Assembly: GCA_022599515.1 (NCBI GenBank)
Contig: JAHZMC010000021.1
Coordinates: forward strand, 8,708-72,707
Length of the DNA stretch: 64,000 nucleotides
From: Betaproteobacteria bacterium
GTDB taxonomy: Bacteria > Pseudomonadota > Gammaproteobacteria > Burkholderiales > Methylophilaceae
Direction of reading: 5' to 3'
Shown here: positions 29,948 through 54,255 of the stretch, in pieces
How positions within the stretch are numbered: position 1 is the first letter of the stretch
Layout of the letters: every line of letters begins with the position of its first letter
Made by a program: the position numbers and the translations under genes
The notes under the pieces: generated by a model
Seen by the model: only the letters and a program-made list of their open reading frames with translations
What the model was told of the DNA's origin: nothing
Database searches by the model: none

Positions 29948-30140
29948 GTCTTATATCTTTCATACTTTAAATAGGGAGGCACCCTGAAAACTTGGGTTTT
30001 AAAATCTAATGCCTACTGACTTAAAATTGAAAAATCCAACGCCTTAGTACGCTTTGTACACGCTAATGAAGAGAAAAACAAGCGGAAAATGCATTTATTT
30101 GCAAAAAAAGCACAAAAAAACGGCTTTTTTGGTGTTTTTG

Positions 30141-30169
30141 TTGCTAAACATGTCGTCTAAGCCTATACT
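30141..30169 (+). promoter_or_regulatory. Candidate sigma-70 promoter of infA
   Basis: TTGCTA (30141-30146), 17-nt spacer, TATACT (30164-30169). Confidence 0.45.
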
Positions 30170-40998: not shown

Positions 40999-41487
40999 TT
41001 ACGCTAATAAACTGACTTTTACATCAACATGCATGGTGGCTTTATTTGATGGCAATCCCAAAAAACTCCCTGCAACTGGTGGGACAGCTTCAGGATTGCG
41101 GGCGACGGCAGTCGCAATATGTTTGCTACTGGTCACTTCTCCTGAGGTCGGGTCAAAGCCTTTCCAGCCAGTGCCAGGTAGATACACTTCTACCCAAGCA
41201 TGGGTGCTAGCATGGCCTTGCTCTGTCGCAGGCGCAACATCAATCTCATCAGCCGTTAAAATATCCGCAGAGGTCCGTATCGAAAATTCACCAGCAGGCG
41301 CAATTAAACGCTGACATAAATTACCATAATTGTCGGTATATTCCACCGCATGAATGCTGCTTGGTTTAAGTGTGTAAGACTCGCGCGCAATCCATTGCTG
41401 CAGGCCGCTACGTGGACGCAACATCAGTGTAAACGGTGTTTCGACGCTCACATCAAAAGTAATATCACAACCAGTACGAAGCCACAC
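40999..41487 (-). pseudogene. Transglutaminase-like protein lacking the catalytic Cys core (in-frame internal deletion)
   Basis: At 162 aa it is far shorter than the roughly 270-290 aa I recall for this family. It keeps an N-terminal Bact_transglu_N-like part (..DNYGNLCQR..) and the C-terminal His/Asp part (HAWVEVYLPGTGWKGFDPT). The segment that normally carries the nucleophile Cys (G.C.DF-type) is missing. Confidence 0.5.
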
Positions 41488-41622: not shown

Positions 41623-43092
41623 TTATTTACCGTCACGCATTTTCTTAAACCAATATTCTAATTGTTTGCCAGCAGCTTCACGACCACCAAGGCCAAATGC
41701 TAGGGCAACGGCTACAGCAACTGAACCAAGGGTTAAGCCAAATGCCATGTTGACGATGTCATCTGCAATGCCCATTGCGCGTAGGCCCATTGCGACCACA
41801 AGGCCGACGATGGCAATGCGGGCGATATTGGCTAGGCCTGTTGATTTTTCGCCGCTTGCACGATCAATTGCATGGTAAGCAAGGTTGGCTAACCAGAAGC
41901 CAATGACTAGAATGACTGAGCCGAGTAGGATATCGCCACCAAACTGAATGAAGATGCTGACAATGTCGCTGACTTCTGAGAAGCCTAAACGATTGGCTGC
42001 TTCCACAGTGGCAAATAACATGGCAAAGAAAATGACGATTTTTCCAACAATGTCAGCGATTGTTGATTTTTTGTTAAATGTTTTTGCATAGCCTAGTTTC
42101 TCAGGCAGCTCGTTAAAACCGATGCTGGTGAGTAGATTGACAATCAGTGCGGCAACAAATTTAGCCACATAATAGGTGATGGTTAATATAACCGCTGCCG
42201 CTAAGATATTGGGCACCGCTTCAAACATCATGGAGAGCATATTGCTGGCTGGCTGAGAAACAGCACTCATTTGTAACGCATCTAAAGCGGCGATTAACGT
42301 TGGAATAAACACAAAGATAAACACCAACATACCAACAACGTTAGATAGTTTAATGGCGTTTTTACCATCCATATCCACTGCTTTTGAAACATTATCAATA
42401 CCGCTGGTTGCTAAAATATTGGTGACTAAACCGCGTAAAATTTTAGCAACAATCCAACCGACAAGTGCGATTACACCACCAGCAAAGATATTAGGAATCA
42501 TGACTAGAAATTCATCTACCATGCCTTGCACGGGTGCTAGTAAGCCGTTGAGTTCGAAGGTGGAAAGTAACGCAGGTAAGAACATTAAAATAATGATCCA
42601 AAACAGCATATTACCAACATTATTGCTCATTGGTTGCATGCCAGCTGCAGCGCTTAGTTTTTCGTCTAACTTGGTCGTTGCTAGTGCTTTAGTGACTATC
42701 AGTCTGACTAAAGTTGCAATTCCCCAAGCAATGGCTAGCAAAATTAATCCCGCAAAAATACGTGGTAAATATTCAAATATTTGCGTCACCATGACATTAA
42801 AAGGTTCAGAAACTGCTTGTAAATTTAAGCTACTAAATACGCCAATTAAAGTAATCAGTAGGATTAGAATAAAAGCGCCAAACGAGATGCCAGAAGCAAT
42901 ATCAACTTCTTGCCCCGTGCTTTCAGAGATTCTTTTGTTAATGCCTATCATGTTTAAAAAGCGGTTTAAGCCAGCGCGAACGAGTACAGCAATCAGCCAA
43001 CCACCTATCAACACAGCAAGCGCTCCAAAAATACCTGGTAGATGTTGACCCAATTGACCCTGCAAACTGTTCACAAGTGTAGAAAAGTCCAT
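41623..43092 (-). CDS. Conserved TM-helix-repeat (CmpX-like, mechanosensitive-channel-related) inner-membrane protein
   Basis: 489-aa polytopic protein made of repeated helix pairs of the type (..GGWIVAKILRGLVTNIL..GID..). Confidence 0.7.
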   Translation of the reverse strand: MDFSTLVNSLQGQLGQHLPGIFGALAVLIGGWLIAVLVRAGLNRFLNMIGINKRISESTGQEVDIASGISFGAFILILLITLIGVFSSLNLQAVSEPFNVMVTQIFEYLPRIFAGLILLAIAWGIATLVRLIVTKALATTKLDEKLSAAAGMQPMSNNVGNMLFWIIILMFLPALLSTFELNGLLAPVQGMVDEFLVMIPNIFAGGVIALVGWIVAKILRGLVTNILATSGIDNVSKAVDMDGKNAIKLSNVVGMLVFIFVFIPTLIAALDALQMSAVSQPASNMLSMMFEAVPNILAAAVILTITYYVAKFVAALIVNLLTSIGFNELPEKLGYAKTFNKKSTIADIVGKIVIFFAMLFATVEAANRLGFSEVSDIVSIFIQFGGDILLGSVILVIGFWLANLAYHAIDRASGEKSTGLANIARIAIVGLVVAMGLRAMGIADDIVNMAFGLTLGSVAVAVALAFGLGGREAAGKQLEYWFKKMRDGK

Positions 43093-43262
43093 TTGAAGTC
43101 CTCCTGAATTTTTATGAAATTGCAGATTCAGTTTACAACTAATTTCAGATAATACAAGGGAAAGGGGACAGTTAGCTGGGATTGGAGGCTAACGGTATCG
43201 TGGATATAAAGCGTAATTTAGGGGAGTATTCCCCTAAATTTTCTTAATGAGTTAGAAGTAAA

Positions 43263-43406
43263 TTATGTTCTCCATGGATGTTGTGGTAAATCACATTCAC
43301 CACATTTAGTCGCGCCAGCTACCGCAACGATATGGTCATTTTCAACCGTATCGCCACTCACACCAACAGCGCCAATCAGCATGCCAATCTGAAAAATCCA
43401 ACTATT
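43263..43406 (-). pseudogene. Remnant of a GlcG/DUF336 (heme-binding) gene, C-terminal end only
   Basis: The minus-strand translation ...[37 protein letters not shown]...* matches the conserved GlcG C-terminus ([11 protein letters not shown]...D..VA.A). A stop codon lies immediately upstream and there is no N-terminal part. Confidence 0.55.
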
Positions 43407-43438: not shown

Positions 43439-43495
43439 ATGCATTTTTTGCATGAAATGAAAGAAAGCATAATGGGTTCTATGCAAAATTTGCAG
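43439..43495. promoter_or_regulatory. Paired TGCA-N5-TGCA boxes (candidate enhancer/UAS) upstream of the cptA-like gene
   Basis: ATGCATTTTTTGCAT (43439-43453) and ATGCAAAATTTGCAG (43481-43495), 27 nt apart. They match the two boxes at 45461-45518 at 13/15 and 14/15 positions. Confidence 0.45.
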
Positions 43496-43595
43496 TTTTA
43501 TGTTGTTTATTACTCGCTTCGATTATTAAAATTAAAACAAGAATAACAATACGAATCAGTAATTTAGCTTGATTTAATTAATCGTTTACTAAACA

Positions 43596-43611
43596 TGGTA
43601 TTATCATTGCT
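43596..43611 (+). promoter_or_regulatory. Candidate sigma-54 (-24/-12) promoter of the cptA-like gene
   Basis: TGGTATtatcaTTGCT has GG-N10-GC spacing with TTGCT at -12. It lies 36 nt before the ATG at 43647, 101 nt downstream of the box pair, and is separated from it by an AT-rich tract. Confidence 0.5.
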
Positions 43612-43646
43612 CATAGCATTGGACAATTCAATCAATAAGCCATGAC

Positions 43647-45401
43647 ATGCAAACAATCAAGAAACTATTTAACAAGTCACTTTTTAGCAAGCTAGCAATT
43701 AACCCATCATCGTTAATGTCGTTTTTACTCTTTTGGTATCTCACCAGTATCACGCAATTGCTCATTAGTTTATCGGGTGCTGCCTCGTTTGAAGGCTTTA
43801 AAGATGCCACCATTACGGCATTTTTATGGATGATTCCTGTGCTGTTATTTCCGCAGCAGGTAAAAAGAATTACCGCAAGTTTAGGCATTATGCTTTGGCT
43901 ATTTGCGTTGCCTGGCTTTGGTTATTACCTTATTTATCATCAAGAATTAACGCAAAGTTTGATGTTTATTATTTTCGAATCTAATCAATCCGAATCAACC
44001 GAATATTTACAAAATTATTTGTCCATTGGGATTGTTTTAAGCTATATCGCGTTTACCTTAGTGCCTCTTTATATTTGGACAACAATAAAGCCTTATGAAA
44101 GCACAAGAAAACCAGCCAATATCACCAGCTTCATTTTAATAACACTTATTTTTATGACGCCTGTGAAACGTGCAATTCAATATGGTGACATTAATGCAGC
44201 TTATAAAAATTTAAATCGCCATTTGTCAGCGGCGCCGCCATGGCAACTTGGATTTGGCTACAGCAATTATCAGCGAGAGTTAAAAGAAGTCGAAGCACAA
44301 CTGCTCAATTTAAACAAAATTCCAGCGCTCAAAAATTTTACAGAAACGAAAAAAGAACTGCCGACAACAGTTGTGCTGGTGATTGGTGAATCGACGACGC
44401 GCGTACACATGGGCTTGTACGGCTATGGCCGAGACACGACGCCAAAACTTTCTAGCATGAAAGATGAATTAATGGTTTTTGACAATGTATTTGCATCCAG
44501 ACCAAATACGATTGAGAGTTTGGAGCAAGTGCTCACTTTCGCCAATCAAGCCCAGCCTGATTTATATAAAACCACGCCTTCTTTAATCGCCATGATGAAG
44601 CAAGCGGGTTATAAAACCTATTGGATTACCAATCAGCAAACGCTCACACAACGTAATACTATGCTCACCACGTTTGCCAAGCAAGCAGATGAACAGGTGT
44701 TTTTGAATCATGGGCGCCGTCAAAATTCTTATAGTTTTGATGCCAAAGTATTGGCACCATTTGCCGAGAAATTGCTTAAACAAGATGAAAAGAAACTCAT
44801 CATCGTCCATTTGCTCGGTACCCATATGAAGTACGCCTATCGATATCCAGCGGACTACAACTTTTTTAATAATGCAGAAGGTATACCTGAAGTCATTTCT
44901 GCCGATTCTGACAAAGTGACACTGGTGAATGAGTATGATAATGCCGTTCGTTATAACGATTACATTGTGCACGCACTGATTCAACAATTGAAACAATCAA
45001 CTGCAAGTGCTACACAGAGCTTATTGGTTTATTTTTCTGATCATGGAGAAGATGTCTATGACTCGGCGCCACACGCATTTAAAGGGCGCAATGAAGGCGC
45101 GCCAACCTACCCCATGTATGCCGTGCCATTTATCGTATGGCATTCGCCAAACTGGCAAAACGCGCAACAGCTAGCGGATTCTGCAATCCGTCACCGCCAG
45201 TATGATAATGCTGATTTTATTTACACGTGGTCAGATTTAATTGGGCTGACCTACGATGGTTATCGCGCAGATGAAAGTCTTATCAATAACGCATTTGGCG
45301 AAGATACCATCCTAGTAGGCGATCCTTATCATGGCAATTTGCACGTGCTCGATGGCACGATTAAACCAGTGAATCTGCCAGTGAATACGCAGAAAAACTA
45401 G
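43647..45401 (+). CDS. cptA: Phosphoethanolamine transferase, CptA/EptC type (LPS core heptose)
   Basis: Similar along its length to E. coli CptA as I recall it (..VLVIGESTTR..LYGY.R.TTP..., MKQAGYKTYWITNQQT, LIIVHLLGTHMKYAYRYP, YFSDHGE). It has an N-terminal TM domain and a sulfatase-fold domain. Confidence 0.85.
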   Translation: MQTIKKLFNKSLFSKLAINPSSLMSFLLFWYLTSITQLLISLSGAASFEGFKDATITAFLWMIPVLLFPQQVKRITASLGIMLWLFALPGFGYYLIYHQELTQSLMFIIFESNQSESTEYLQNYLSIGIVLSYIAFTLVPLYIWTTIKPYESTRKPANITSFILITLIFMTPVKRAIQYGDINAAYKNLNRHLSAAPPWQLGFGYSNYQRELKEVEAQLLNLNKIPALKNFTETKKELPTTVVLVIGESTTRVHMGLYGYGRDTTPKLSSMKDELMVFDNVFASRPNTIESLEQVLTFANQAQPDLYKTTPSLIAMMKQAGYKTYWITNQQTLTQRNTMLTTFAKQADEQVFLNHGRRQNSYSFDAKVLAPFAEKLLKQDEKKLIIVHLLGTHMKYAYRYPADYNFFNNAEGIPEVISADSDKVTLVNEYDNAVRYNDYIVHALIQQLKQSTASATQSLLVYFSDHGEDVYDSAPHAFKGRNEGAPTYPMYAVPFIVWHSPNWQNAQQLADSAIRHRQYDNADFIYTWSDLIGLTYDGYRADESLINNAFGEDTILVGDPYHGNLHVLDGTIKPVNLPVNTQKN

Positions 45402-45458
45402 CTTTAACCAAAACGCTAGCTAGGCCTATCGTCACGCCCATTCAGTAGCAACGTTAAC

Positions 45459-45520
45459 GCCTGCATTATTTGCATTACCTATAGCATTAGTCTCAATGGA
45501 TGCATGCAAAAGTTGCAGGC
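45459..45520. promoter_or_regulatory. Paired TGCA-N5-TGCA boxes (candidate enhancer/UAS) upstream of the methyltransferase-PAP2-eptA operon
   Basis: GCCTGCAttaTTTGCAT (45459-45475) and ATGCAAAagtTGCAGGC (45504-45520) form a 17-nt imperfect inverted pair (14/17), 28 nt apart. Confidence 0.5.
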
Positions 45521-45604
45521 TTCAATCCTATTTCACTATGCTTTAATTTTATTAAAGTCAAAATAAACAATAGGTTAAAAGATATTTTATTCAATTATTA
45601 CAGT

Positions 45605-45620
45605 TGGCATGCCGCTTGCT
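45605..45620 (+). promoter_or_regulatory. Candidate sigma-54 (-24/-12) promoter of the methyltransferase-PAP2-eptA operon
   Basis: TGGCATgccgcTTGCT is near-identical to the TGGCAC-N5-TTGCW consensus. It lies 40 nt before the ATG at 45660, with AAGGGA as the RBS. Confidence 0.65.
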
Positions 45621-45659
45621 CAATAGCCTTAGTCAGTGAACAAACACTAAGGGAAATAA

Positions 45660-46355
45660 ATGTTTAACCATGCAGGTAAAGCAGAACCGCAAGCCGAAGC
45701 AACATTAGCTTTCTCTAACAAATACGACCAACAACATGCGCAACAATATTTTGAAAAACATGATGATGGTATTTGGCGCAAACTATCCAATTGGCGCGAT
45801 CAGCAAATTGCTAGAAAAGCACTCAAAATAGCGGGCAATCCAAAATCGGTACTTGATACACCCTGCGGCACAGGTCGCTTTTGGGGTGTGCTTGCGGAAA
45901 ATAACAATAGAATTATTCACGCTAGTGATTACAAACAAACCATGATTGATGTTGGCGTGCTTAATCGTCCGCAATCAATCACTAAACGAATCAAACATTT
46001 TCAAGCCTCGGCGTTTGAATTGCCAGTGCCAGATCAATTTGTAGACAGTATTTTTTGCATGCGCTTCATACACCATTTGGGCGAATCTGCAGACAGAGTA
46101 AGGTTGCTAAAAGAGTTTCACCGCGTAACAAAAGAAACAGTGATTATTTCACTTTGGGTTGATGGCAATATCAAAGCAAAAAGAAGGTTGGCACTTGATC
46201 AAAAACGTCCTCCAAAAACGTATCAAAATCGCTTCGTTATTCCAGCTAAAACAATTGAAGAGGAGTTTAGAGCAAACGGATTTACAGTTATTGAAAAGCT
46301 TGATTTTTTAAAGCATTACCATATGTGGCGCACTTATGTAGTGCGTAAAGTCTAA
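45660..46355 (+). CDS. Class I SAM-dependent methyltransferase
   Basis: Motif I VLDTPCGTGRF with downstream motifs. 231 aa and soluble. Confidence 0.8.
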   Translation: MFNHAGKAEPQAEATLAFSNKYDQQHAQQYFEKHDDGIWRKLSNWRDQQIARKALKIAGNPKSVLDTPCGTGRFWGVLAENNNRIIHASDYKQTMIDVGVLNRPQSITKRIKHFQASAFELPVPDQFVDSIFCMRFIHHLGESADRVRLLKEFHRVTKETVIISLWVDGNIKAKRRLALDQKRPPKTYQNRFVIPAKTIEEEFRANGFTVIEKLDFLKHYHMWRTYVVRKV

Positions 46356-46373
46356 AACAGGTATAGTAATAAC

Positions 46374-47069
46374 ATGTTTTCTTTTAAAACGCTCAGAACA
46401 GCACTTTTTGTATTGTTATTCTCAGGTGTATTTTTTGCAGTAATCTCTCAGTTTACCAGCATTGATGTGAACATCGAAGATTACTATTACGACGCTCAGA
46501 AACACCAATTTATTTGGAAAAATAGCTGGTTTGCAAAGCAATTGATGCATACCTATGTCAAAGACGTGATTATCGTATTAGCGCTATTGCTTATCATTGT
46601 TGTAGTGGTCGATATAGGCAAACCAATCAGCAAAATAAGCGCATGGACGCGCATTAGGCTGCGGTTTGTAAGCGTTGCAGCGATTGTTATTCCCTCTTTT
46701 ATCTCTAGCGCAAAACAACTGTCAGTCATGCATTGCCCATGGGATGTTGAGCGCTATGGCGGTGCCGTGCCTTATCTAAGACTATTTGACATGATGCCAG
46801 CGCATATAAAAGCAGGTCATTGCTTTCCCGCAGGACATGCTTCAACAGGCTTGTGGTTGGCGGCATTTTGCGTCTTTTGGTTACCTTACCATCCGCGCAA
46901 GGCATTGCTGGTTTTTTTAGCGGGCTTGGGCGTTGGGTTTGTACTCGGCTGGGTGCAACAAATGCGGGGCGCGCACTTTCTTTCTCACACTTTATGGTCA
47001 GTGTGGATAGCCAGCGCCATTATTCTGCTCATGCTCTGTGTTAGCCAGTCATTCATCAATCGTCATTAA
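46374..47069 (+). CDS. PAP2 superfamily membrane phosphatase (LpxE/PgpB-like)
   Basis: Polytopic protein with PAP2 C2/C3-like motifs (FPAGHAS, MRGAHFLSHTLWS). Adjacent to eptA. Confidence 0.8.
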   Translation: MFSFKTLRTALFVLLFSGVFFAVISQFTSIDVNIEDYYYDAQKHQFIWKNSWFAKQLMHTYVKDVIIVLALLLIIVVVVDIGKPISKISAWTRIRLRFVSVAAIVIPSFISSAKQLSVMHCPWDVERYGGAVPYLRLFDMMPAHIKAGHCFPAGHASTGLWLAAFCVFWLPYHPRKALLVFLAGLGVGFVLGWVQQMRGAHFLSHTLWSVWIASAIILLMLCVSQSFINRH

Positions 47070-47086
47070 TTTTACAGAAACAAGTT

Positions 47087-48730
47087 ATGCTCAATACTCG
47101 CTTTACTAAACTCATCAATTCACAAACAGGCGCTATTTTCTTGGTTGTATTGTTTGTGATGCTTACCGCTAATATGTCGCTCTTTCAGCATATTGTAGAA
47201 ATTTACCCACTCAATCTGCGCAATATCCCGTTTTTAATTTCATTATCTATTTTTTTCAGCTTATTAACGGCTTTGTTTTTCATGGCAATTAGCTTCGGTA
47301 GAAAAGGTCGCTGGCTGATTGCTTTGCTATTAATCATCAGCGCGCAAGCCGCTTATTATATGGATAATTTCGGTGTATTGATGGATAGCGTGATGATAGA
47401 CAATATCATACATACCGACGCTAAAGAGGTGGAAGGTTTAGTGAATGTTGGTATGGTGATGCATCTCTTGTTGCTAGGCGTCTTGCCTGCTTGGTTGGTG
47501 ATTCGATATTGGCCAACAGTGAACAATATCAGTGCTGAGATTAAAACGCGGTTTTTGTGTTTATTGCTATTGATTATTGCACTTGTTGTCGTGGTATTGC
47601 CATTTACGGCGGGTTATACCAGCTTTATCCGTGAACATAAAATCACCCGTTTTTATGCTAATCCTACCTACCCAGTTTATTCATTAATCAAATATGCGCA
47701 ATTACAATTAAAGGACAAACAACAAGCTGACATCACAAAAACGGCAAATGATGCTCAATTTACAGAGGGGAGTATTAAAAATGAATTGGTGATTATGGTT
47801 GTTGGTGAAACCGCGCGAGCGGATAGATTCTCACTCAATGGCTATCACAAAGAGACAAACCCGCGCTTAGCAAAAGAAGATATTGTGAACTTTACCAATG
47901 TGAGTTCATGCGGTACTTCTACTGGCGTTTCAGTTCCGTGTATGTTTTCAGAATTAGGTCGAAAAGACTACGACAAGCAGAAAGCATTAAACCAAGAAAA
48001 TATATTGGATGTGTTAGCGAAAAACGGTATAGAAGTGTTATGGCGTGATAACAATTCAGATTCAAAAGGCGTTGCGACTAGGGTTCAATACGAGGATTTC
48101 AAAACGCCGACTCACAATCCTGTTTGTGAAGGTGAATGCAGAGACATTGGTATGTTGAGTGGGTTGGATGCTTATATAGCTTCTAAAAAAGGCAAAGATA
48201 TCATGATTGTGTTGCATCAAATGGGCAATCATGGCCCTGAATATTATCGCCGCTATCCAAAAGCATTCGCAAAATTTCAACCAATGTGTATGACAGGTGA
48301 ATTAAGAGATTGCACAAAAGAAGAGGTAAATAATAGTTACGATAATGCGATTTTATATACGGATTATTTTTTATCAGAAGTCATTCAATTCTTAAAAAAA
48401 TACGATGACGATTATGAAACGGCGATGTTGTATGTATCTGATCATGGTGAATCGCTAGGTGAAAATGGCGTTTGGTTGCATGCCGCACCTTATATGATGG
48501 CGCCAAAGACGCAAACGCATGTGCCAGCTATTTTGTGGTTAGGACAACACTTTGATTACAACATATCGCAAGCGGAAGTTTATAAAGACGCGCCATTAAG
48601 TCACGATGATTTATTTTGCACCTTACTCATCGCTTATGAGCTGGATGCGAAAACCTGTATTGCAAAAAGAGAGATGCTCATGAATAACTTAGCTATTCAA
48701 GCAGCGTTAACTATTGAGAAAAGGCGATAG
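47087..48730 (+). CDS. eptA: Phosphoethanolamine--lipid A transferase
   Basis: Five N-terminal TM helices and a sulfatase domain with EptA motifs (VVGETARADRFSLNGY, SCGTSTGVSVPCMFS, HQMGNHGPEYYRRYP, VSDHGESLGE). Confidence 0.88.
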   Translation: MLNTRFTKLINSQTGAIFLVVLFVMLTANMSLFQHIVEIYPLNLRNIPFLISLSIFFSLLTALFFMAISFGRKGRWLIALLLIISAQAAYYMDNFGVLMDSVMIDNIIHTDAKEVEGLVNVGMVMHLLLLGVLPAWLVIRYWPTVNNISAEIKTRFLCLLLLIIALVVVVLPFTAGYTSFIREHKITRFYANPTYPVYSLIKYAQLQLKDKQQADITKTANDAQFTEGSIKNELVIMVVGETARADRFSLNGYHKETNPRLAKEDIVNFTNVSSCGTSTGVSVPCMFSELGRKDYDKQKALNQENILDVLAKNGIEVLWRDNNSDSKGVATRVQYEDFKTPTHNPVCEGECRDIGMLSGLDAYIASKKGKDIMIVLHQMGNHGPEYYRRYPKAFAKFQPMCMTGELRDCTKEEVNNSYDNAILYTDYFLSEVIQFLKKYDDDYETAMLYVSDHGESLGENGVWLHAAPYMMAPKTQTHVPAILWLGQHFDYNISQAEVYKDAPLSHDDLFCTLLIAYELDAKTCIAKREMLMNNLAIQAALTIEKRR

Positions 48731-48771
48731 GGTAAAAACGATAATTAATTTCAAAAATATTGTTCACTTCA

Positions 48772-49266
48772 TTATTTTTCGCAACTTTGCAGTGACGGTT
48801 TGCTTTTGAGTATCTCGCCACCAGGCATGAGCCAAAATAAGCTTTGAACACGCTCATCCAGATTGCAAGCGTTAACATAACCGATAGCGCCTTTTGTGTT
48901 CGAAACATAGCGCAATACGGCTTCCTCTGAGTTAACAGAATAAGGGGGCAGTATCCCGTTAAAGTATTGACCGTTCCAATAATCAATTTGTGTTTCTGGT
49001 GAGCCACCTAAAACCGCTTCTGAAAATTGTATTCTTACGGCATTTTTCGCATTTAAATTGACGGGTTTAATTTGTATACCTTGCGGCCAAAAAAGTTGCT
49101 TACGCCAATAAATTAAATTTAAATTCTTGGCGCTCAGATTAAGTTCGCTAGCCTTTTGCTGGCTCGAAACAACCACAGCGATAATAGTTTGATTTTCCTT
49201 TGCTAAGGAAAGGCTGGGCAATATCATTGCACTTGCTACAATAAGAAACAAGAAGCGCCTATACAT
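48772..49266 (-). CDS. Small periplasmic PBP-like (PstS-type half-domain) protein
   Basis: Signal peptide and a PBP-like pattern (LNLIYWRKQLFWPQGIQIKPV..., GAIGYV). Its start overlaps the stop of the upstream barrel gene (TAATG). Confidence 0.6.
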   Translation of the reverse strand: MYRRFLFLIVASAMILPSLSLAKENQTIIAVVVSSQQKASELNLSAKNLNLIYWRKQLFWPQGIQIKPVNLNAKNAVRIQFSEAVLGGSPETQIDYWNGQYFNGILPPYSVNSEEAVLRYVSNTKGAIGYVNACNLDERVQSLFWLMPGGEILKSKPSLQSCEK

Positions 49267-50264
49267 TAGAAGAACAATGCAAATGAAGTTAAGAAACCAC
49301 GAGGTGATTCAGGCTGATCTCCGCTGCCACCAGTAAACTCAAACTTTAATAGTTGCGTGGGCTTAATGCGCCAAGTGGCGCCAACTAACCAGCGCTCTGC
49401 CGTTGCTTCATCTGGTCGTTGCAGGGTTTCTACACGGGTAATCCAATACCAATTATTAAAGCCGATTGGCTTTAAAGGCACGGCAGATTGTAGATAGGCG
49501 CCGCTACCGCCATCCTTATTTCTTATATCAAAGCGCTGAAAAAATTCACCACTGACTTCTACCTGTTTAATATGAGTAATAAAGTCTAAGCCAAGCATGC
49601 GGTAACTATTATCAATGCCCTTTTCGCGGAATGATAATATCGAGATGCCAATATCCGATTGATTTTTATAGCTAAATCTGGCCCCTTTTACATGCTCAAA
49701 GGCTAATTCATCTCCATCTTGCTGTTGGTCTTCTAACAATTCAGCAAAGATTTTGTATTCAAATGCACCATTCATAAATGGGGTTGCACCAAAAACCATG
49801 ACACCATTAGTGCCTTCTGGGAAAAGTCTAGAAGTGGCTAATGGACGTGTGCTGGTCCAAACGAGTGGAGGTGCGTGTAAAAGATTCCAGCGGCTATTTG
49901 GGGTTAAAAATCGTCCACCGCGAAAATTGACTTTTTCTGTGATGTTGTAATCTAAGTAAAGCCGCTCTAAATCAAAACGAGATTCCTGGTCGTGAAATTG
50001 CCGCTCATCATTCCAAGATAATGGATTTTCAAGTTCCAGTTCACCAAAAAAACTTAAACGACTATCGCCATTCCATGTCACCAGTAAACTGACTTCATTC
50101 AACGCTGCTTGGGCTTCTTGATCTCTTTCTAATGTCAGGCCAGCACTGGAGTAACCGCCGATATTAAACCCATCAAGCCAGCTAGGTGTATCATCAGCAA
50201 ATACGTGCTTGCACAGACAGAGCAGGCTAGCTAAACTGGTGAATATAATGATAAATTTTTTCAT
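49266..50264 (-). CDS. Uncharacterised outer-membrane beta-barrel (porin-like) protein
   Basis: Signal peptide (..CKHVFA/DD), alternating amphipathic strands and a C-terminal aromatic residue (..SFALFF). Confidence 0.6.
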   Translation of the reverse strand: MKKFIIIFTSLASLLCLCKHVFADDTPSWLDGFNIGGYSSAGLTLERDQEAQAALNEVSLLVTWNGDSRLSFFGELELENPLSWNDERQFHDQESRFDLERLYLDYNITEKVNFRGGRFLTPNSRWNLLHAPPLVWTSTRPLATSRLFPEGTNGVMVFGATPFMNGAFEYKIFAELLEDQQQDGDELAFEHVKGARFSYKNQSDIGISILSFREKGIDNSYRMLGLDFITHIKQVEVSGEFFQRFDIRNKDGGSGAYLQSAVPLKPIGFNNWYWITRVETLQRPDEATAERWLVGATWRIKPTQLLKFEFTGGSGDQPESPRGFLTSFALFF

Positions 50265-50364
50265 ATTGATTTCAATTGTTGGATCTTTAACGCTTACTCT
50301 GCGTAATAAGAAGACCGCGTCAAATGGAATTGTCTCATTACATGCTTAATAAAAGAAATAATCA

Positions 50365-52032
50365 ATGTTAAAAAGATTAAGTATTAAGCAATTATTGTTG
50401 CTGGCCTTTTTGTTAGCGGGCTTGCTGCCGGCGATGTTAGTCAGTTTTTTAAGTTTCTATCAAAGCCGTTCTGTTCTCAAGCAAGAAATTACGCGTGATA
50501 TGCAAACATTGAGCACGGCAGTTGCCAATGATATGGAGCGCATGATGTTTGAACGTTTGCGCAATGTGCAATCATGGAGTCAGCTCTCTATTATGCAAGA
50601 GCTCAAAATTGGGGATATTGATAAACGCTTATCTGTTTTTTTGAATGGTTTAGCACAGAGTTACGGCAATATTTACCATGTCATTTATGTTGAAGATTTG
50701 CAACATAGGGTGATTGCCAGCAGTAATGCTAAGAAAATCGGACTACAAAATCAGCCTCAGCCGCCTTGGTTTTCTGCCAGCTTATCTGGCAGGTCATTAA
50801 GTATTGCTAAAATCAACGGCAATGTTTTAGCGATTTCTGCAGAAATTATTGATGAAACGACCAACATTCCTATGGGTCAGCTTGTGGTCGAATTTAACTG
50901 GGATATCGTGCAAAATGCACTGAATAATGTGATCAAAAAACCAACAGCAGCAGCATTGCTAGATACGAATGGCAATGTGTTGGCGGCGACCTCAAATTGG
51001 GCAGAAATTCATTCTGGATATGGTATGTATGCGATTAGTCAATTTAGTCAGCAATCACCAATGCCCCAATGGCGGGTGCAAGTTGAAAAGCTACACTCCA
51101 TAGCAGTCGCGCCTGTACATAAATTGGGCCATATCTTTTTGGGTTTGTTGGCGGCAACTTTGCTATTGGCCGCGTTAATGGTCAGGCCGATTGCACAAGC
51201 TATTACGCAACCAATCTCGCAATTAACCCAATTTGTAAAAGGTTTTGCGCGACAAACAAAGGCGAAACCGCCACAGTCTGGGCCACCAGAAGTACGTGAG
51301 TTAGTCGCTGCTTTTGAAACGATGACAGAAGATTTAGCCAAGTCGCAAGAAAAGCTAACGCGCGCTGCAAAGCTAGCGGTTGTTGGTGAAATGGCTGCGG
51401 CGATGAGTCATGAAGTGCGCACGCCGCTAGGCATATTACGTTCTTCAGCGGATGTATTAAAGCGCGAAAAAACCTTATCTGACGAAGGTAGAGAAGTGCT
51501 GACGTTTATTGGCGCAGAAACAGAGCGGCTCAATAAATTAGTATCTACTTTAATTGATGCGGCGCGTCCGCGTTTGCCTATTTTTTCTCAGCTTAACTTA
51601 ACAGAATTAATCGCCAATACAGTCGCCATGTTGCGGAATCAAGCGCAGGCAAAACAGATTCATCTGACATTTGATCGCCAAACGCCGACGGTAACCGCAG
51701 CGGTTGATGCAGACCAAATGACGCAAGTCATGATGAATTTAATCATGAATGCAATACAAGTGTTGCCAGAAGGCGGACATATTATGATTGTGTTAGAACA
51801 TATCGGTCATCAAGCGGTGATTCGTGTGGAAGATGATGGCGAAGGGATTAGCGAGGAACATCAGGCGCAGATTTTTGAGCCATTTTTTACTAAACGTGCA
51901 GGCGGTGTTGGTTTGGGATTGGCGGTGGTGCGACAAATTGTATTGGCGCATGGCGGTGAAATTCATTATCAAACCAGCCAAATGCATGGCGCGCAGTTTA
52001 CAATTCTCATTCCAATACAACAGGCAAGTTAA
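50365..52032 (+). CDS. Sensor histidine kinase with a periplasmic (Cache-like) domain, HAMP, HisKA and HATPase domains
   Basis: Two TM segments flank a loop of about 230 aa. H-box (MSHEVRTPL) and N/G boxes (NLIMNAIQ, DDGEGI, GGVGLGLAV) are present. Confidence 0.88.
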   Translation: MLKRLSIKQLLLLAFLLAGLLPAMLVSFLSFYQSRSVLKQEITRDMQTLSTAVANDMERMMFERLRNVQSWSQLSIMQELKIGDIDKRLSVFLNGLAQSYGNIYHVIYVEDLQHRVIASSNAKKIGLQNQPQPPWFSASLSGRSLSIAKINGNVLAISAEIIDETTNIPMGQLVVEFNWDIVQNALNNVIKKPTAAALLDTNGNVLAATSNWAEIHSGYGMYAISQFSQQSPMPQWRVQVEKLHSIAVAPVHKLGHIFLGLLAATLLLAALMVRPIAQAITQPISQLTQFVKGFARQTKAKPPQSGPPEVRELVAAFETMTEDLAKSQEKLTRAAKLAVVGEMAAAMSHEVRTPLGILRSSADVLKREKTLSDEGREVLTFIGAETERLNKLVSTLIDAARPRLPIFSQLNLTELIANTVAMLRNQAQAKQIHLTFDRQTPTVTAAVDADQMTQVMMNLIMNAIQVLPEGGHIMIVLEHIGHQAVIRVEDDGEGISEEHQAQIFEPFFTKRAGGVGLGLAVVRQIVLAHGGEIHYQTSQMHGAQFTILIPIQQAS

Positions 52033-52034
52033 GC

Positions 52035-53393
52035 ATGGACACCCAAAAACGTATTCTCGCAGTTGATGATGAGCCGAATATGCGGCGCTTGCTGGAGATT
52101 AGTTTGCGTCAAGCAGGCTATCAAGCGTTGACCGCCGCCAATGGAAGAGAGGCATTAGAGACCCTCAAAACAGAGCAAGTGGATTTGGTCGTTAGCGATT
52201 TGCACATGCCGGGCATGAGCGGTTTAGAGTTGCTTAAACAAATGCGCGCAGACAGTGATGCCATTCCTTTTATTATGGTAACGGCACAAGGTGAAATTAA
52301 TACCGCAGTTGAGGCGATGAAGTTAGGCGCGGCGGATTATATCTTGCGCCCTTTTGATTTAGAGGTGCTGGAAGTTGCAATTGCCAAAGCTCTAGATATC
52401 CAAAGATTACAGCTTGAAAACACCTATTTAAAATCGACAACGCAACCGATTGTGCAAGGCCTAATTGGCGAAAGTTTAGCGATGCAAACATTGAAGCAAA
52501 TGATCGCACAAGTCGCGCCAGAAAAAGCCACCGTATTAATTGCAGGTGAAACAGGCACAGGTAAAGAGCTTGTTGCAAAAGCCATTCATACCGCCTCGAG
52601 TAGAAAAGACGGTTTATTTGTTGCGGTCAATTGCGCGGCGATACCCGCAGATATGTTGGAATCTGAGTTATTTGGCTATGAAAAAGGCGCTTTCACAGGC
52701 GCAGTTAAAACACGGGTCGGTAAATTTGAATTGGCAGATAAAGGCACACTATTCTTAGATGAAATTACTGAGATGCCTATCCATTTGCAAGCTAAGCTAC
52801 TACGTGCATTGCAAGAAGGTGTAATTGAAAAATTAGGCAGTAATAAACAAATTGCTTTGGATAACCGCATTGTTGCGGCCACCAACCGCGATGCCATGCA
52901 AGCGGTCAAAGATGGTAAGTTGCGAGAAGATTTATATTATCGATTGAATGTATTTCAGTTGAATGTACCCGCCTTAAAAGAACGTACAGGCGATGTGGCT
53001 TTATTAAGTCATTTCTTTTTGGCCAAGCGTGAGGGTGAAGAACGTAGCGCTCAAATAAGTGATGAAGCAATGCAGCAGTTACAACGTTATGATTGGCCTG
53101 GTAATGTGCGTGAGCTAGAAAATGTACTAGAGCGCGCTTCTATATTGTCATCAGGCGGTCAGATTGAAACGCATCATTTGCCGAGTGATATTGTAGGCAA
53201 TACTATCAGCGCAGTAGATAATACGACGCTACAAAATGATTTTTCCATCCCAGCGCAAACACAAAGGCTAGAGAAAAAACTAATCACTGAAGCAATTGAG
53301 CGTTGTAATGGCAATAAAGCAAAAGCAGCCAAATTACTCGAGATTAGTGAACGCTCACTCTGGTATAAGCTAGATCAATACCAACTAAAATAA
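52035..53393 (+). CDS. Sigma-54-dependent response regulator (NtrC-family enhancer-binding protein)
   Basis: REC domain (DDEPNM..D..MPGMSG), an AAA+ domain with GETGTGKE and the GAFTGA loop (EKGAFTGA), and a C-terminal Fis-type HTH. Confidence 0.92.
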   Translation: MDTQKRILAVDDEPNMRRLLEISLRQAGYQALTAANGREALETLKTEQVDLVVSDLHMPGMSGLELLKQMRADSDAIPFIMVTAQGEINTAVEAMKLGAADYILRPFDLEVLEVAIAKALDIQRLQLENTYLKSTTQPIVQGLIGESLAMQTLKQMIAQVAPEKATVLIAGETGTGKELVAKAIHTASSRKDGLFVAVNCAAIPADMLESELFGYEKGAFTGAVKTRVGKFELADKGTLFLDEITEMPIHLQAKLLRALQEGVIEKLGSNKQIALDNRIVAATNRDAMQAVKDGKLREDLYYRLNVFQLNVPALKERTGDVALLSHFFLAKREGEERSAQISDEAMQQLQRYDWPGNVRELENVLERASILSSGGQIETHHLPSDIVGNTISAVDNTTLQNDFSIPAQTQRLEKKLITEAIERCNGNKAKAAKLLEISERSLWYKLDQYQLK

Positions 53394-53580
53394 ATGAAAA
53401 TAAACATGCTAACGGTATTGTTTTTGCCAGCGCTCTATGCAGCATGGTTTAAAATCAGCGTACCAAAAGAGGCGGAGCCAATATTTGCACAAGAAGTTAC
53501 AGAATAATGGTTGTAAGTGCTAATACTGTTTTACACTATCGCATATACAAAACAAAGAGTCGGAATAACTAGGTTTAACT

Positions 53581-54255
53581 ATGACATCAGTACAAAAAAG
53601 TCTCGGTAACGAGCAAGCACGTTTTAATATGATTGAACAACAAATTCGCACATGGGAAGTATTAGATCCCAATGTGTTGCAACTGTTGCATAAAGTGCCA
53701 CGTGAACATTTTGTGCCAGAAGCCTATCAAGGCTTGGCGTTTGCTGATATTGAAATACCGCTGATTGATGGGCAGTCTATGTTGTCACCTAAATTAGAGG
53801 CACGGATTTTACAGTCGTTGGCGATTAAACCCAGCGATCAAGTTTTGCATATAGGCACTGGTAGCGGTTACTTCACCGCTCTACTCGCCAACATGGCGGC
53901 ACATGTCTATTCAGTTGAAATTAACGCTGAGTTAAGTGCAGCAGCCGCATACAAATTAGCAGAGCATGATATTCATAATGTGACGATTGAACTAGGTAAT
54001 GGTATTGATGGACTAAAAGCACACCAACCTTATGATGTCATTGTGTTAACTGGATCATCCCCAGTTGAGCCATTAAACTTACGTGATCAATTAGCCATCG
54101 GCGGCAGCTTGTTTGTGGTGTTAGGGTCTGCACCAGCGATGGAAGCAACGTTAATTACGCGGGTTTCTGAAACGGGCTTTAATAAACAAGTGATTTTTGA
54201 AACTTGTCTACCTGAATTAGCAAATGCGCCGCAAGGGAATACGTTTAGTTTCTAA
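53581..54255 (+). CDS. Protein-L-isoaspartate O-methyltransferase family protein
   Basis: SAM motif VLHIGTGSGYFTALLA. The pcm-like/tolC gene pairing is conserved in proteobacteria. Confidence 0.85.
   Translation: MTSVQKSLGNEQARFNMIEQQIRTWEVLDPNVLQLLHKVPREHFVPEAYQGLAFADIEIPLIDGQSMLSPKLEARILQSLAIKPSDQVLHIGTGSGYFTALLANMAAHVYSVEINAELSAAAAYKLAEHDIHNVTIELGNGIDGLKAHQPYDVIVLTGSSPVEPLNLRDQLAIGGSLFVVLGSAPAMEATLITRVSETGFNKQVIFETCLPELANAPQGNTFSF

Follow-up and report, generated by a model that had tools for sequence, protein, structure and literature searches.

Within a 64-kb stretch of a Methylophilaceae genome (assembly GCA_022599515.1, contig JAHZMC010000021.1, positions 8,708 to 72,707; hereafter the window, in whose coordinates all features are given), we analysed a locus at 43–53 kb that encodes two phosphoethanolamine (PEtN) transferases, CptA and EptA, alongside a sensor histidine kinase, an NtrC-class enhancer-binding protein (EBP), a porin-like outer-membrane barrel and a small secreted PstS-like protein. 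Judged from sequence and comparison, the locus quite probably forms a two-component, sigma-54-dependent regulon that remodels lipopolysaccharide (LPS) phosphates and charge and is conserved in Methylophilaceae. What the compared sequences establish directly is the identity of the genes, the arrangement of the cis-elements and how far it is conserved, and the fact that this arrangement co-occurs with the EBP gene.

Promoter architecture of the ept units and its conservation in Methylophilaceae

Two matches to the -24/-12 pattern of sigma-54 promoters (TGG-N8-TTGCW) were located on the plus strand upstream of the PEtN transferase genes: PcptA (TGGTATTATCATTGCT, 43596–43611) and a second promoter before the methyltransferase (MT)–PAP2–eptA genes (TGGCATGCCGCTTGCT, 45605–45620), the latter being the top-scoring sigma-54 match in the window when both strands were scored. 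Each is preceded by a candidate upstream activator site (UAS) made up of a pair of TGCA-N5-TGCA boxes, namely TGCATTTTTTGCA (43440–43452) and TGCAAAATTTGCA (43482–43494), 42 bp apart, for PcptA (UAS 43440–43494), and TGCATTATTTGCA (45462–45474) and TGCAAAAGTTGCA (45505–45517), 43 bp apart, for the second promoter (UAS 45462–45517). The two upstream regions align with one another in the order box, 29/30 nt, box, AT-rich spacer and promoter, and the box centres lie 94–151 bp from the -24 elements. Both also carry a site resembling that of integration host factor (IHF) on the plus strand: AATCAGTAATTTA (43554–43566), with one mismatch to WATCAANNNNTTR, is placed 42 bp upstream of the -24 element of PcptA, and AAACAATAGGTTA (45565–45577), likewise with one mismatch, 40 bp upstream of that of the second promoter. 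No sigma-70-like match was found on the coding strand in either ept promoter region, and no terminator was found between cptA and the MT gene. Pattern searches and alignment therefore confirmed what an initial annotation, made from the sequence alone, had proposed: a sigma-54-type promoter and a shared TGCA-N5-TGCA pair before both ept units.

Counted across the window, neither motif was more frequent than expected by chance (11 matches to TGG-N8-TTGCW versus 9.4 expected; 7 to TGCA-N5-TGCA versus 5.2), and four of the seven boxes constitute the two ept-side pairs (43440, 43482, 45462 and 45505). What departs from chance is how the motifs cluster, their constant geometry and, most of all, their conservation in relatives, rather than motif counts alone. 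A similar combination upstream of infA (30090–30145), in which TGCATTTATTTGCA, with an N6 spacer, stands 27 bp before TGGTGTTTTTGTTGCT (TGG-N8-TTGC at 30130), was rejected because its spacing is wrong and the elements are too close; this likeness is probably due to chance.

Relatives of the locus were obtained by scanning one genome per species, which returned 55 loci (labelled L001 and so on), all in Methylophilaceae. A match to TGG-N8-TTGCW counted as a unit when one or more exact TGCA-N5-TGCA boxes stood 30–150 bp upstream of it, and the expectation was taken from shuffled sequences. The 40 loci that contain the EBP (720 kb) held 46 such units, versus 0.06 in shuffles, and the 15 loci without it (211 kb) held none, though nine of the 15 carry eptA (one of these nine being a contig cut inside the kinase gene). 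These counts bear out the co-occurrence of the sensor module with the ept genes, the absence of which had been named beforehand as grounds for refuting the initial proposal. The box pair of PcptA, its spacing and its distance from the promoter were all matched in relatives; orthologues of PcptA (TGGCAYTGTCGTTGCT) were found in L001, L003, L005, L006 and L007, and counterparts of the second (internal) unit in L005 (16299), L047 (10447), L026, L030 and L053.

The geometry of the units in relatives was stereotyped. Distances from the centre of the proximal box to the TGG fell into three classes of 107–108 bp (cptA side), 94–95 bp (internal MT/PAP2 promoter) and 59–60 bp (divergent promoter), the boxes of a pair were spaced by 42–43 or 31–33 bp, and the box consensus across units was aTGCAAAAtTTGCAg. 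With at most one mismatch allowed, the IHF consensus occurred in 38 of 51 units, compared with a mean of 13 and a maximum of 21 in shuffles; exact matches numbered 10 versus 0.9 in shuffles, offsets were fixed, and the position of the IHF-like site was kept in the cptA/eptA-side promoters of relatives. Intergenic DNA around the units is otherwise unalignable between relatives, and because the composite with its fixed spacing recurs in dozens of such diverged genomes, the motifs are very unlikely to be a product of chance. All units precede, and would drive, envelope genes (cptA, eptA, PAP2, an InaA-like LPS kinase, an OpgB-like transferase and a T_hemolysin operon), and the window's own locus is also present on 11 metagenome contigs. 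Co-occurrence, stereotyped spacing, IHF positions and the AtoC-like form of the boxes together lend in silico support to the core of the initial proposal, namely transcription of the ept genes from sigma-54 promoters that have an activator site in common.

Genes were identified from Pfam and NCBIfam profile matches, judged against curated cut-offs, and the eight genes of the locus proved to be as first described, on the evidence of these matches, the GAFTGA motif, signal peptides and a gene overlap. The product of the first gene (43647–45401, plus strand; start placed at 43716 by metagenome gene callers) matches Pfam Sulfatase and the CptA subfamily model NF007933 (673 bits, cut-off 404) and falls short of the stricter domain model NF012179 (675 bits versus 900); by subfamily score it is a CptA-type core heptose-phosphate PEtN transferase, with the core as its predicted acceptor. 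A class I S-adenosylmethionine-dependent MT (45660–46355, plus strand; Methyltransf_11/25), kept after cptA in relatives, is followed by a PAP2-family phosphatase (46374–47069, plus strand; Pfam PAP2 38.6 bits, cut-off 27.2). The phosphatase lies below the equivalog cut-off of the LpxE/LpxF-type model PAP2_lipid_A (NF028538, 95.7 bits versus 275) and is, from its gene context, probably a lipid A phosphatase; PDB sequence searches with the MT and with the PAP2 protein returned nothing informative. The eptA-type PEtN–lipid A transferase gene (47087–48730, plus strand) encodes EptA_B_N and Sulfatase domains (PF08019, 135 bits; PF00884, 207 bits), matches NF028537 (614 bits, cut-off 500) and shows the catalytic motifs GETARAD, CGTSTG and DHGESLGE in translation; the E. 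coli EptA equivalog was not reached (469 versus 660).

Downstream on the plus strand lie the kinase gene (50365–52032), whose product combines a periplasmic dCache_1 domain with HisKA and HATPase_c, and the EBP gene (52035–53393), encoding an AtoC-like protein with Response_reg, Sigma54_activat and HTH_8 domains. The kinase core is closest to AtoS among NCBIfam models, yet scores 196 bits versus an equivalog cut-off of 646, and its sensor domain is confined to a Methylophilaceae-type lineage (422 matches), with no homologue found outside Methylophilaceae at the sensitivity reached. The EBP retains the receiver aspartate, an AAA+ domain (PF00158, 240 bits) with the Walker A sequence GETGTGKE and an intact GAFTGA within EKGAFTGAVK, and a Fis-type helix-turn-helix (HTH). 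A profile search found no Trans_reg_C domain in it, and the regulator is not of the OmpR/PhoB winged-helix type. Domain matches and translation therefore uphold the annotated pairing of a kinase with an NtrC-family EBP.

By the NtrC/AtoC paradigm, the dCache kinase would sense a periplasmic or envelope cue and phosphorylate the EBP, dimers of which would occupy the two same-face TGCA-N5-TGCA boxes, three or four helical turns apart, and then oligomerise as an ATPase. IHF would bend the AT-rich spacer, the EBP would contact RNA polymerase–sigma-54 at -24/-12, and ATP hydrolysis would open closed complexes at PcptA and at the second promoter before MT–PAP2–eptA. The predicted output, by family membership, comprises addition of PEtN to lipid A (EptA) and core (CptA), removal of lipid A phosphate (PAP2) and a methylation, with a less negative outer membrane as the combined result. 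The barrel/PstS-like pair would be expressed separately, from its own conserved sigma-70-type promoter. For EBP binding, dependence on RpoN and IHF, the enzyme products and the signal, this scheme gives what we infer.

The barrel and PstS-like pair beside the kinase

Two minus-strand genes between eptA and the kinase gene encode the porin-like outer-membrane beta-barrel (49266–50264, 332 aa, with a C-terminal F) and the secreted PstS-like (PBP_like_2) protein (48772–49266, 164 aa). The genes overlap by one base (ATGA) at 49266, both products carry signal peptides, and these features, with the fold matches below, agree with the initial description of a translationally coupled periplasmic binding protein (PBP)-like protein and outer-membrane barrel. 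The AlphaFold2 (AF2) model of the barrel has about 16 strands at a model confidence (pLDDT) of only 61.5, and its Foldseek matches were general or anion-selective porins (OmpU/Omp32/OmpC; E 5e-9, TM-score of about 0.5); no Pfam porin family reached threshold. Several hundred unannotated homologues of the barrel were found, all from Methylophilaceae-type sources.

The PstS-like protein matched PF12849 weakly (16.9 bits, below 27), and the top Foldseek matches of its AF2 model (pLDDT 74) were PstS proteins (E 1e-5). The alignment spans about 125 residues, corresponding to one lobe of PstS proteins of 240–320 aa, and the 164-aa protein does not have the two-lobe Venus-flytrap form of PstS and type II PBPs. 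Its family consists of proteins of 140–200 aa in 3,340 representative clusters. In the representative library, one 744-aa protein (P0475) is a BlaR1-type M56 peptidase sensor-transducer that bears a single-lobe PstS-like domain at its C-terminus, a fusion which hints that this small domain family is able to act as an extracytoplasmic sensor.

Among relatives, two arrangements of the barrel gene were apparent. In the first, seen in about 35 loci and down to about 60% barrel identity, the order is EBP–kinase, barrel–PstS-like, and eptA–PAP2–(MT or LPS kinase)–cptA. The barrel–PBP operon was divergent from the kinase gene in 40/40 EBP-containing loci and shares with it an intergenic region of about 100 bp, in which no sigma-54 element or box was found. 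The sole conserved block of this region, in an alignment of 13 orthologous loci, is TGAGACAAT (50329–50337, minus strand), an extended -10-like element of sigma-70 type that is probably the promoter of the barrel operon or else the site of another regulator. As no box/sigma-54 unit precedes it, the barrel–PBP operon is not an output of the EBP.

In the second arrangement, eptA is directly followed by the barrel gene, and genes for the kinase, activator and PstS-like protein are lacking. Methylotenera mobilis 13, M. oryzisoli and related metagenome-assembled genomes show it with the barrel gene 4 bp after eptA, at the end of a czc-type cluster and with no box there; the M. mobilis barrel is truncated by insertion sequence (IS) elements. 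In M. mobilis 13 (L051:1572–10915), as in L033, L050 and L052, eptA and the barrel gene stand at the end of a cluster of czcB–czcA (TIGR00914, 1645 bits), a CDF gene, mgtC and a SIS gene. This placement in a czc island suggests that PEtN modification, the barrel and metal stress are linked.

For the role of the pair, the evidence is divided between signal input and envelope effector. An explanation whose chances we put at only a little short of even holds that the two proteins are envelope effectors (the barrel might be a porin adapted to modified LPS, or form an anion channel that works with a binding protein), or serve an independent function that travels with eptA, and that the kinase senses directly through its dCache domain. 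The kinase-less eptA–barrel islands of the M. mobilis type favour this account, as do the fold matches of the barrel to general or anion-selective porins and the fact that dCache domains commonly bind ligands on their own. Set against it are the invariable divergence of the barrel–PBP operon from the kinase gene in EBP loci, with a conserved element between them; the absence of a box/sigma-54 unit before the operon; and the fusion of one homologous single-lobe domain to a BlaR1-type sensor-transducer. PBP-like co-sensors beside kinases are, moreover, well known, as in TorT/TorS and LuxP/LuxQ. On balance we lean slightly towards a co-sensor role for the pair rather than an effector role. The 'dedicated input module' first proposed is a putative one: the pair is always found beside the kinase in these loci and never behind a box/sigma-54 unit, but the barrel gene also comes directly after eptA in kinase-less metal-efflux islands of M. 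mobilis.

The most likely signal, named here with low confidence, is a cation/metal cue or a phosphate-type anion. A more far-reaching proposal, which we regard as speculative, is that Methylophilaceae replaced PmrAB-type control by a lineage-specific three-part envelope sensor: the barrel would admit or report the cue, the PstS-like protein bind it and the dCache kinase receive it, with the AtoC-like EBP commanding an LPS-phosphate/charge regulon (EptA, CptA, PAP2, LPS kinase, OpgB-like protein and the T_hemolysin–acyl ligase–haem-oxygenase-like–short-chain dehydrogenase (SDR) acyl-lipid pathway). If true, signals from the outer membrane would reach sigma-54 by a new route.

Probable assignment of the boxes to the adjacent activator

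With E. coli AtoC, its best NCBIfam match, the EBP shares 45% identity; it lies below both the AtoC equivalog NF008469 (473 bits versus a cut-off of 714) and the ZraR equivalog NF007689 (390 versus 760); no ato genes are present in the window's locus. Across 40 orthologues and paralogues the HTH (GNKAKAAKLLEISERSLWYKL) hardly varies, while overall identity falls to about 56–64%, a constancy that appears to match the invariant TGCA half-sites of the boxes. The verified AtoC sites of E. coli, GCTATGCAGAAATTTGCACA and GCTATGCAGAAAATTGCGCA, are TGCA-N6-TGCR inverted 20-mers (PMC3118216). In the E. coli sequence, a TGGCAC-N5-TTGCT promoter (TGGCACTCCCCTTGCT) follows this site pair at a distance of about 85 bp. 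The half-sites of the window boxes are identical to those of AtoC, with a spacer of N5 versus N6 and a different pair geometry.

We also scanned metagenomes for the box pair and considered 120 loci among the matches listed. These included 13 more Methylophilaceae-type ept/T_hemolysin loci, whose promoter lies at an equal offset, and seven unrelated loci in which the box pair lies beside another AtoC-like EBP gene (39–45% identity) and a GG-N10-GC promoter. In the latter (L103:744–9177, L130, L151, L080, L171, L182 and L127:22–3040) the AtoC-like gene is followed by TGCAAAATTTGCA-N28-TGCAAATTTTGCA and the GG-N10-GC promoter, and the genes controlled are Mrp/Nuo-like antiporter genes or a TAXI-TRAP binding protein, not ept genes. 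The presence of the box pair beside other AtoC-like EBPs implies that the boxes are a generic site type of the AtoC subfamily, and the ept wiring is, within the data reached and as read from sequence, specific to Methylophilaceae. The scan also caught arrays of 20-bp tandem repeats containing TGGTGCAAACTTTGCA (L155:6691–7023, L175:2648–2980 and L178:6706–7038).

These comparisons point to the adjacent kinase/EBP pair as the likely regulator of the ept units. Several points weigh against this reading, or against the sigma-54 regulon as a whole. The assignment of boxes to the EBP rests on adjacency and co-occurrence, and the loci compared are related, so that the co-occurrence counts are not phylogenetically independent. 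About 100 of the 120 listed metagenome matches have no recognisable EBP link, and the box pair is consequently not diagnostic by itself. Genomes with two modules use identical half-sites and a nearly identical HTH, so that a given box pair may be served by either EBP. The sigma-54 match of PcptA is moderate (TGGTAT..., 9/12 scored positions). Finally, neither rpoN nor ihf lies in the window or the fetched loci, where a regular-expression search for the RpoN-box motif found no match; that this genome has both genes is assumed because it encodes an activator with GAFTGA.

An unlikely alternative is that a different sigma-54 activator, encoded elsewhere, binds the boxes, and that the adjacent kinase/EBP pair controls other targets. 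TGCA half-sites are indeed common to several Fis-type HTH activators (AtoC and the other AtoC-like EBPs), some genomes hold two paralogous modules with the same half-sites, and our EBP census covered the 64-kb window and the related loci rather than the whole genome. However, the adjacent EBP is the sole one encoded in the window and in each related locus, box/sigma-54 units occur only where this EBP does, and the neighbourhood of the kinase/EBP pair offers no further candidate target behind a sigma-54 promoter. That the motifs are chance matches or relics, with the ept genes constitutive from ordinary sigma-70 promoters, is very improbable: both motifs do occur at expected frequency across the window and the ept intergenic regions are AT-rich, but the composite architecture recurs at fixed spacing in dozens of diverged genomes and the ept promoter regions offer no sigma-70-like match on the coding strand.

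Predicted wider regulon, flanking genes and known systems

In relatives, the box pair usually lies between two divergent sigma-54 promoters. On one side is cptA–(MT)–(InaA-like LPS kinase)–PAP2–eptA(–DUF347–DUF1003–EamA), and on the other either T_hemolysin (PF12261)–AMP-binding ligase–Haem_oxygenas_2–SDR or an OpgB/LtaS-like transferase gene (665 aa). In most relatives the conserved four-gene operon of T_hemolysin, AMP-binding acyl ligase, Haem_oxygenas_2 (PF14518) and SDR (for instance L005:18473–20685 and L062:1–3029) lies behind the divergent sigma-54 promoter, which has its box pair in common with the ept operon. The window's lineage lost these four genes, whose product is possibly an acylated envelope lipid. 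Some genomes contain two paralogous kinase/activator/barrel/PstS-like modules, as in L014 and L025 (both on JAGVMP010000011.1, 15 kb apart) and in L017/L018. The second module would drive genes for an eptA-like 645-aa protein, PAP2, an OpgB-like protein and GtrA/ArnC-like proteins.

The left flank of the window's locus records a loss of such members. The annotated GlcG remnant is real: a C-terminal glcG fragment of 39 aa (43263–43382, minus strand) was seen in open reading frame (ORF) translation, separated by a hairpin terminator (43215–43240) from an intact MscS-like gene with four PF05552 repeats (41623–43092, minus strand). L009 retains the intact order, in which a sigma-54 promoter is followed by the OpgB-like gene (675 aa), glcG (148 aa) and the MscS-like gene. 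Compared with this order, the window has, through a deletion, lost the divergent sigma-54 promoter, the gene for the OpgB/LtaS-like transferase and the 5' portion of glcG, and the 'debris' is accordingly a lineage-specific deletion of further regulon members and not an accessory island. We rejected TGGCATGCTGATTGG (minus strand, about 43370–43390) as a decayed divergent sigma-54 promoter, since the sequence belongs to the start of the ORF that makes up the glcG remnant. The truncated transglutaminase-like gene of the initial annotation is present as an ORF of 162 aa (40999–41487, minus strand) and appears to be internally deleted, although its identity is backed by weak, partial matches to Bact_transglu_N and Transglut_core; its metagenome copies have called lengths of 162 versus 148 aa. 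The flanks are syntenic in relatives, with PCMT–TolC on one side and a pseudouridine synthase gene on the other. Of the suggestion that this is an accessory or rearranged region, rearrangement therefore holds, in the form of a lineage-specific deletion of regulon genes, whereas locus and flanks together are conserved chromosomal synteny and not accessory.

Most relatives have about 5 kb between the EBP gene and PCMT–TolC, containing genes for a TetR regulator, a membrane-fusion protein and a resistance–nodulation–division (RND) pump (L003:860–6867). This block is missing from the window (53393–53581), as it is from L015 and L049, a sign of further gene loss in the window's lineage. The pump was rejected as part of the regulon, having its own TetR gene, a generic HAE1-like character and no box unit.

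Resistance to polymyxin and cationic peptides arises mainly through PEtN transferases (the EptA/MCR family and CptA), and the regulation of these enzymes has, to our knowledge, been described almost only via OmpR-family two-component systems. In the library searched, literature on sigma-54, RpoN or EBPs in connection with PEtN transferases, eptA or the modification of lipid A, and on phosphoethanolamine in Methylotenera, yielded no account of wiring of the kind seen here, in keeping with the initial view of sigma-54/EBP control of PEtN transferases as an undescribed solution. Francke et al. (2011) proposed that sigma-54 governs the cell exterior and, from genome context, predicted that it is linked to the biosynthesis and transport of LPS (PMC3162934), without mention of PEtN transferases, lipid A modification enzymes or polymyxin. 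The regulon predicted here would give that proposal a concrete example, with the PEtN output rewired onto a tightly off/on, ATP-dependent promoter class across a family of environmental methylotrophs. The TGCA-N5-TGCA pair, the IHF site and the -24/-12 elements, set at constant distances from one another, form a cis-code that may be used for genome-wide regulon prediction, and the regulon brings to light unstudied members such as the methyltransferase, the T_hemolysin operon and the porin/PstS-like pair.

Among known systems, ZraSR is likewise a sigma-54 two-component system for envelope homeostasis, but a zraP-like gene is absent from the window's locus and the EBP scores below the ZraR equivalog. 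Secreted PBP-fold proteins encoded beside kinases are generally known from TorT–TorS, LuxP–LuxQ, ChvE–VirA and PgtC–PgtB; unlike these, the window's protein, a putative co-sensor, corresponds to a single lobe of the PstS-type fold, and its gene is translationally coupled to that of the porin-like barrel. The AtoS/AtoC–atoDAEB system of short-chain fatty acid catabolism in E. coli shares with the window an activator composed of receiver, GAFTGA-bearing AAA+ domain and Fis-type HTH, as well as a TGCA...TGCA site pair, an AT-rich spacer and a TGGCAC-N5-TTGCT-type promoter downstream. It differs in that the AtoC sites abut as one 40-bp palindrome, whereas the boxes described here have an N5 spacer and lie 31–43 bp apart, and in that the kinase sensor here is a periplasmic dCache domain and the targets are LPS-modifying enzymes rather than ato genes. 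PmrAB/BasSR and the ColRS, MisRS and CprRS types resemble the present locus in being two-component systems that adjoin and control PEtN transferase genes (a control that is predicted here) and render LPS less negative; in Salmonella, cptA and eptA belong to one PmrAB-type regulon, and the window regulon likewise has both. Their regulators are OmpR/PhoB winged-helix proteins acting on sigma-70 promoters, in contrast to a sigma-54 enhancer-binding ATPase at a distant UAS with IHF, and the sensor domain of the window's kinase is unrelated to theirs. On this reading, the locus is a new wiring of a familiar response and not a new class of mechanism.

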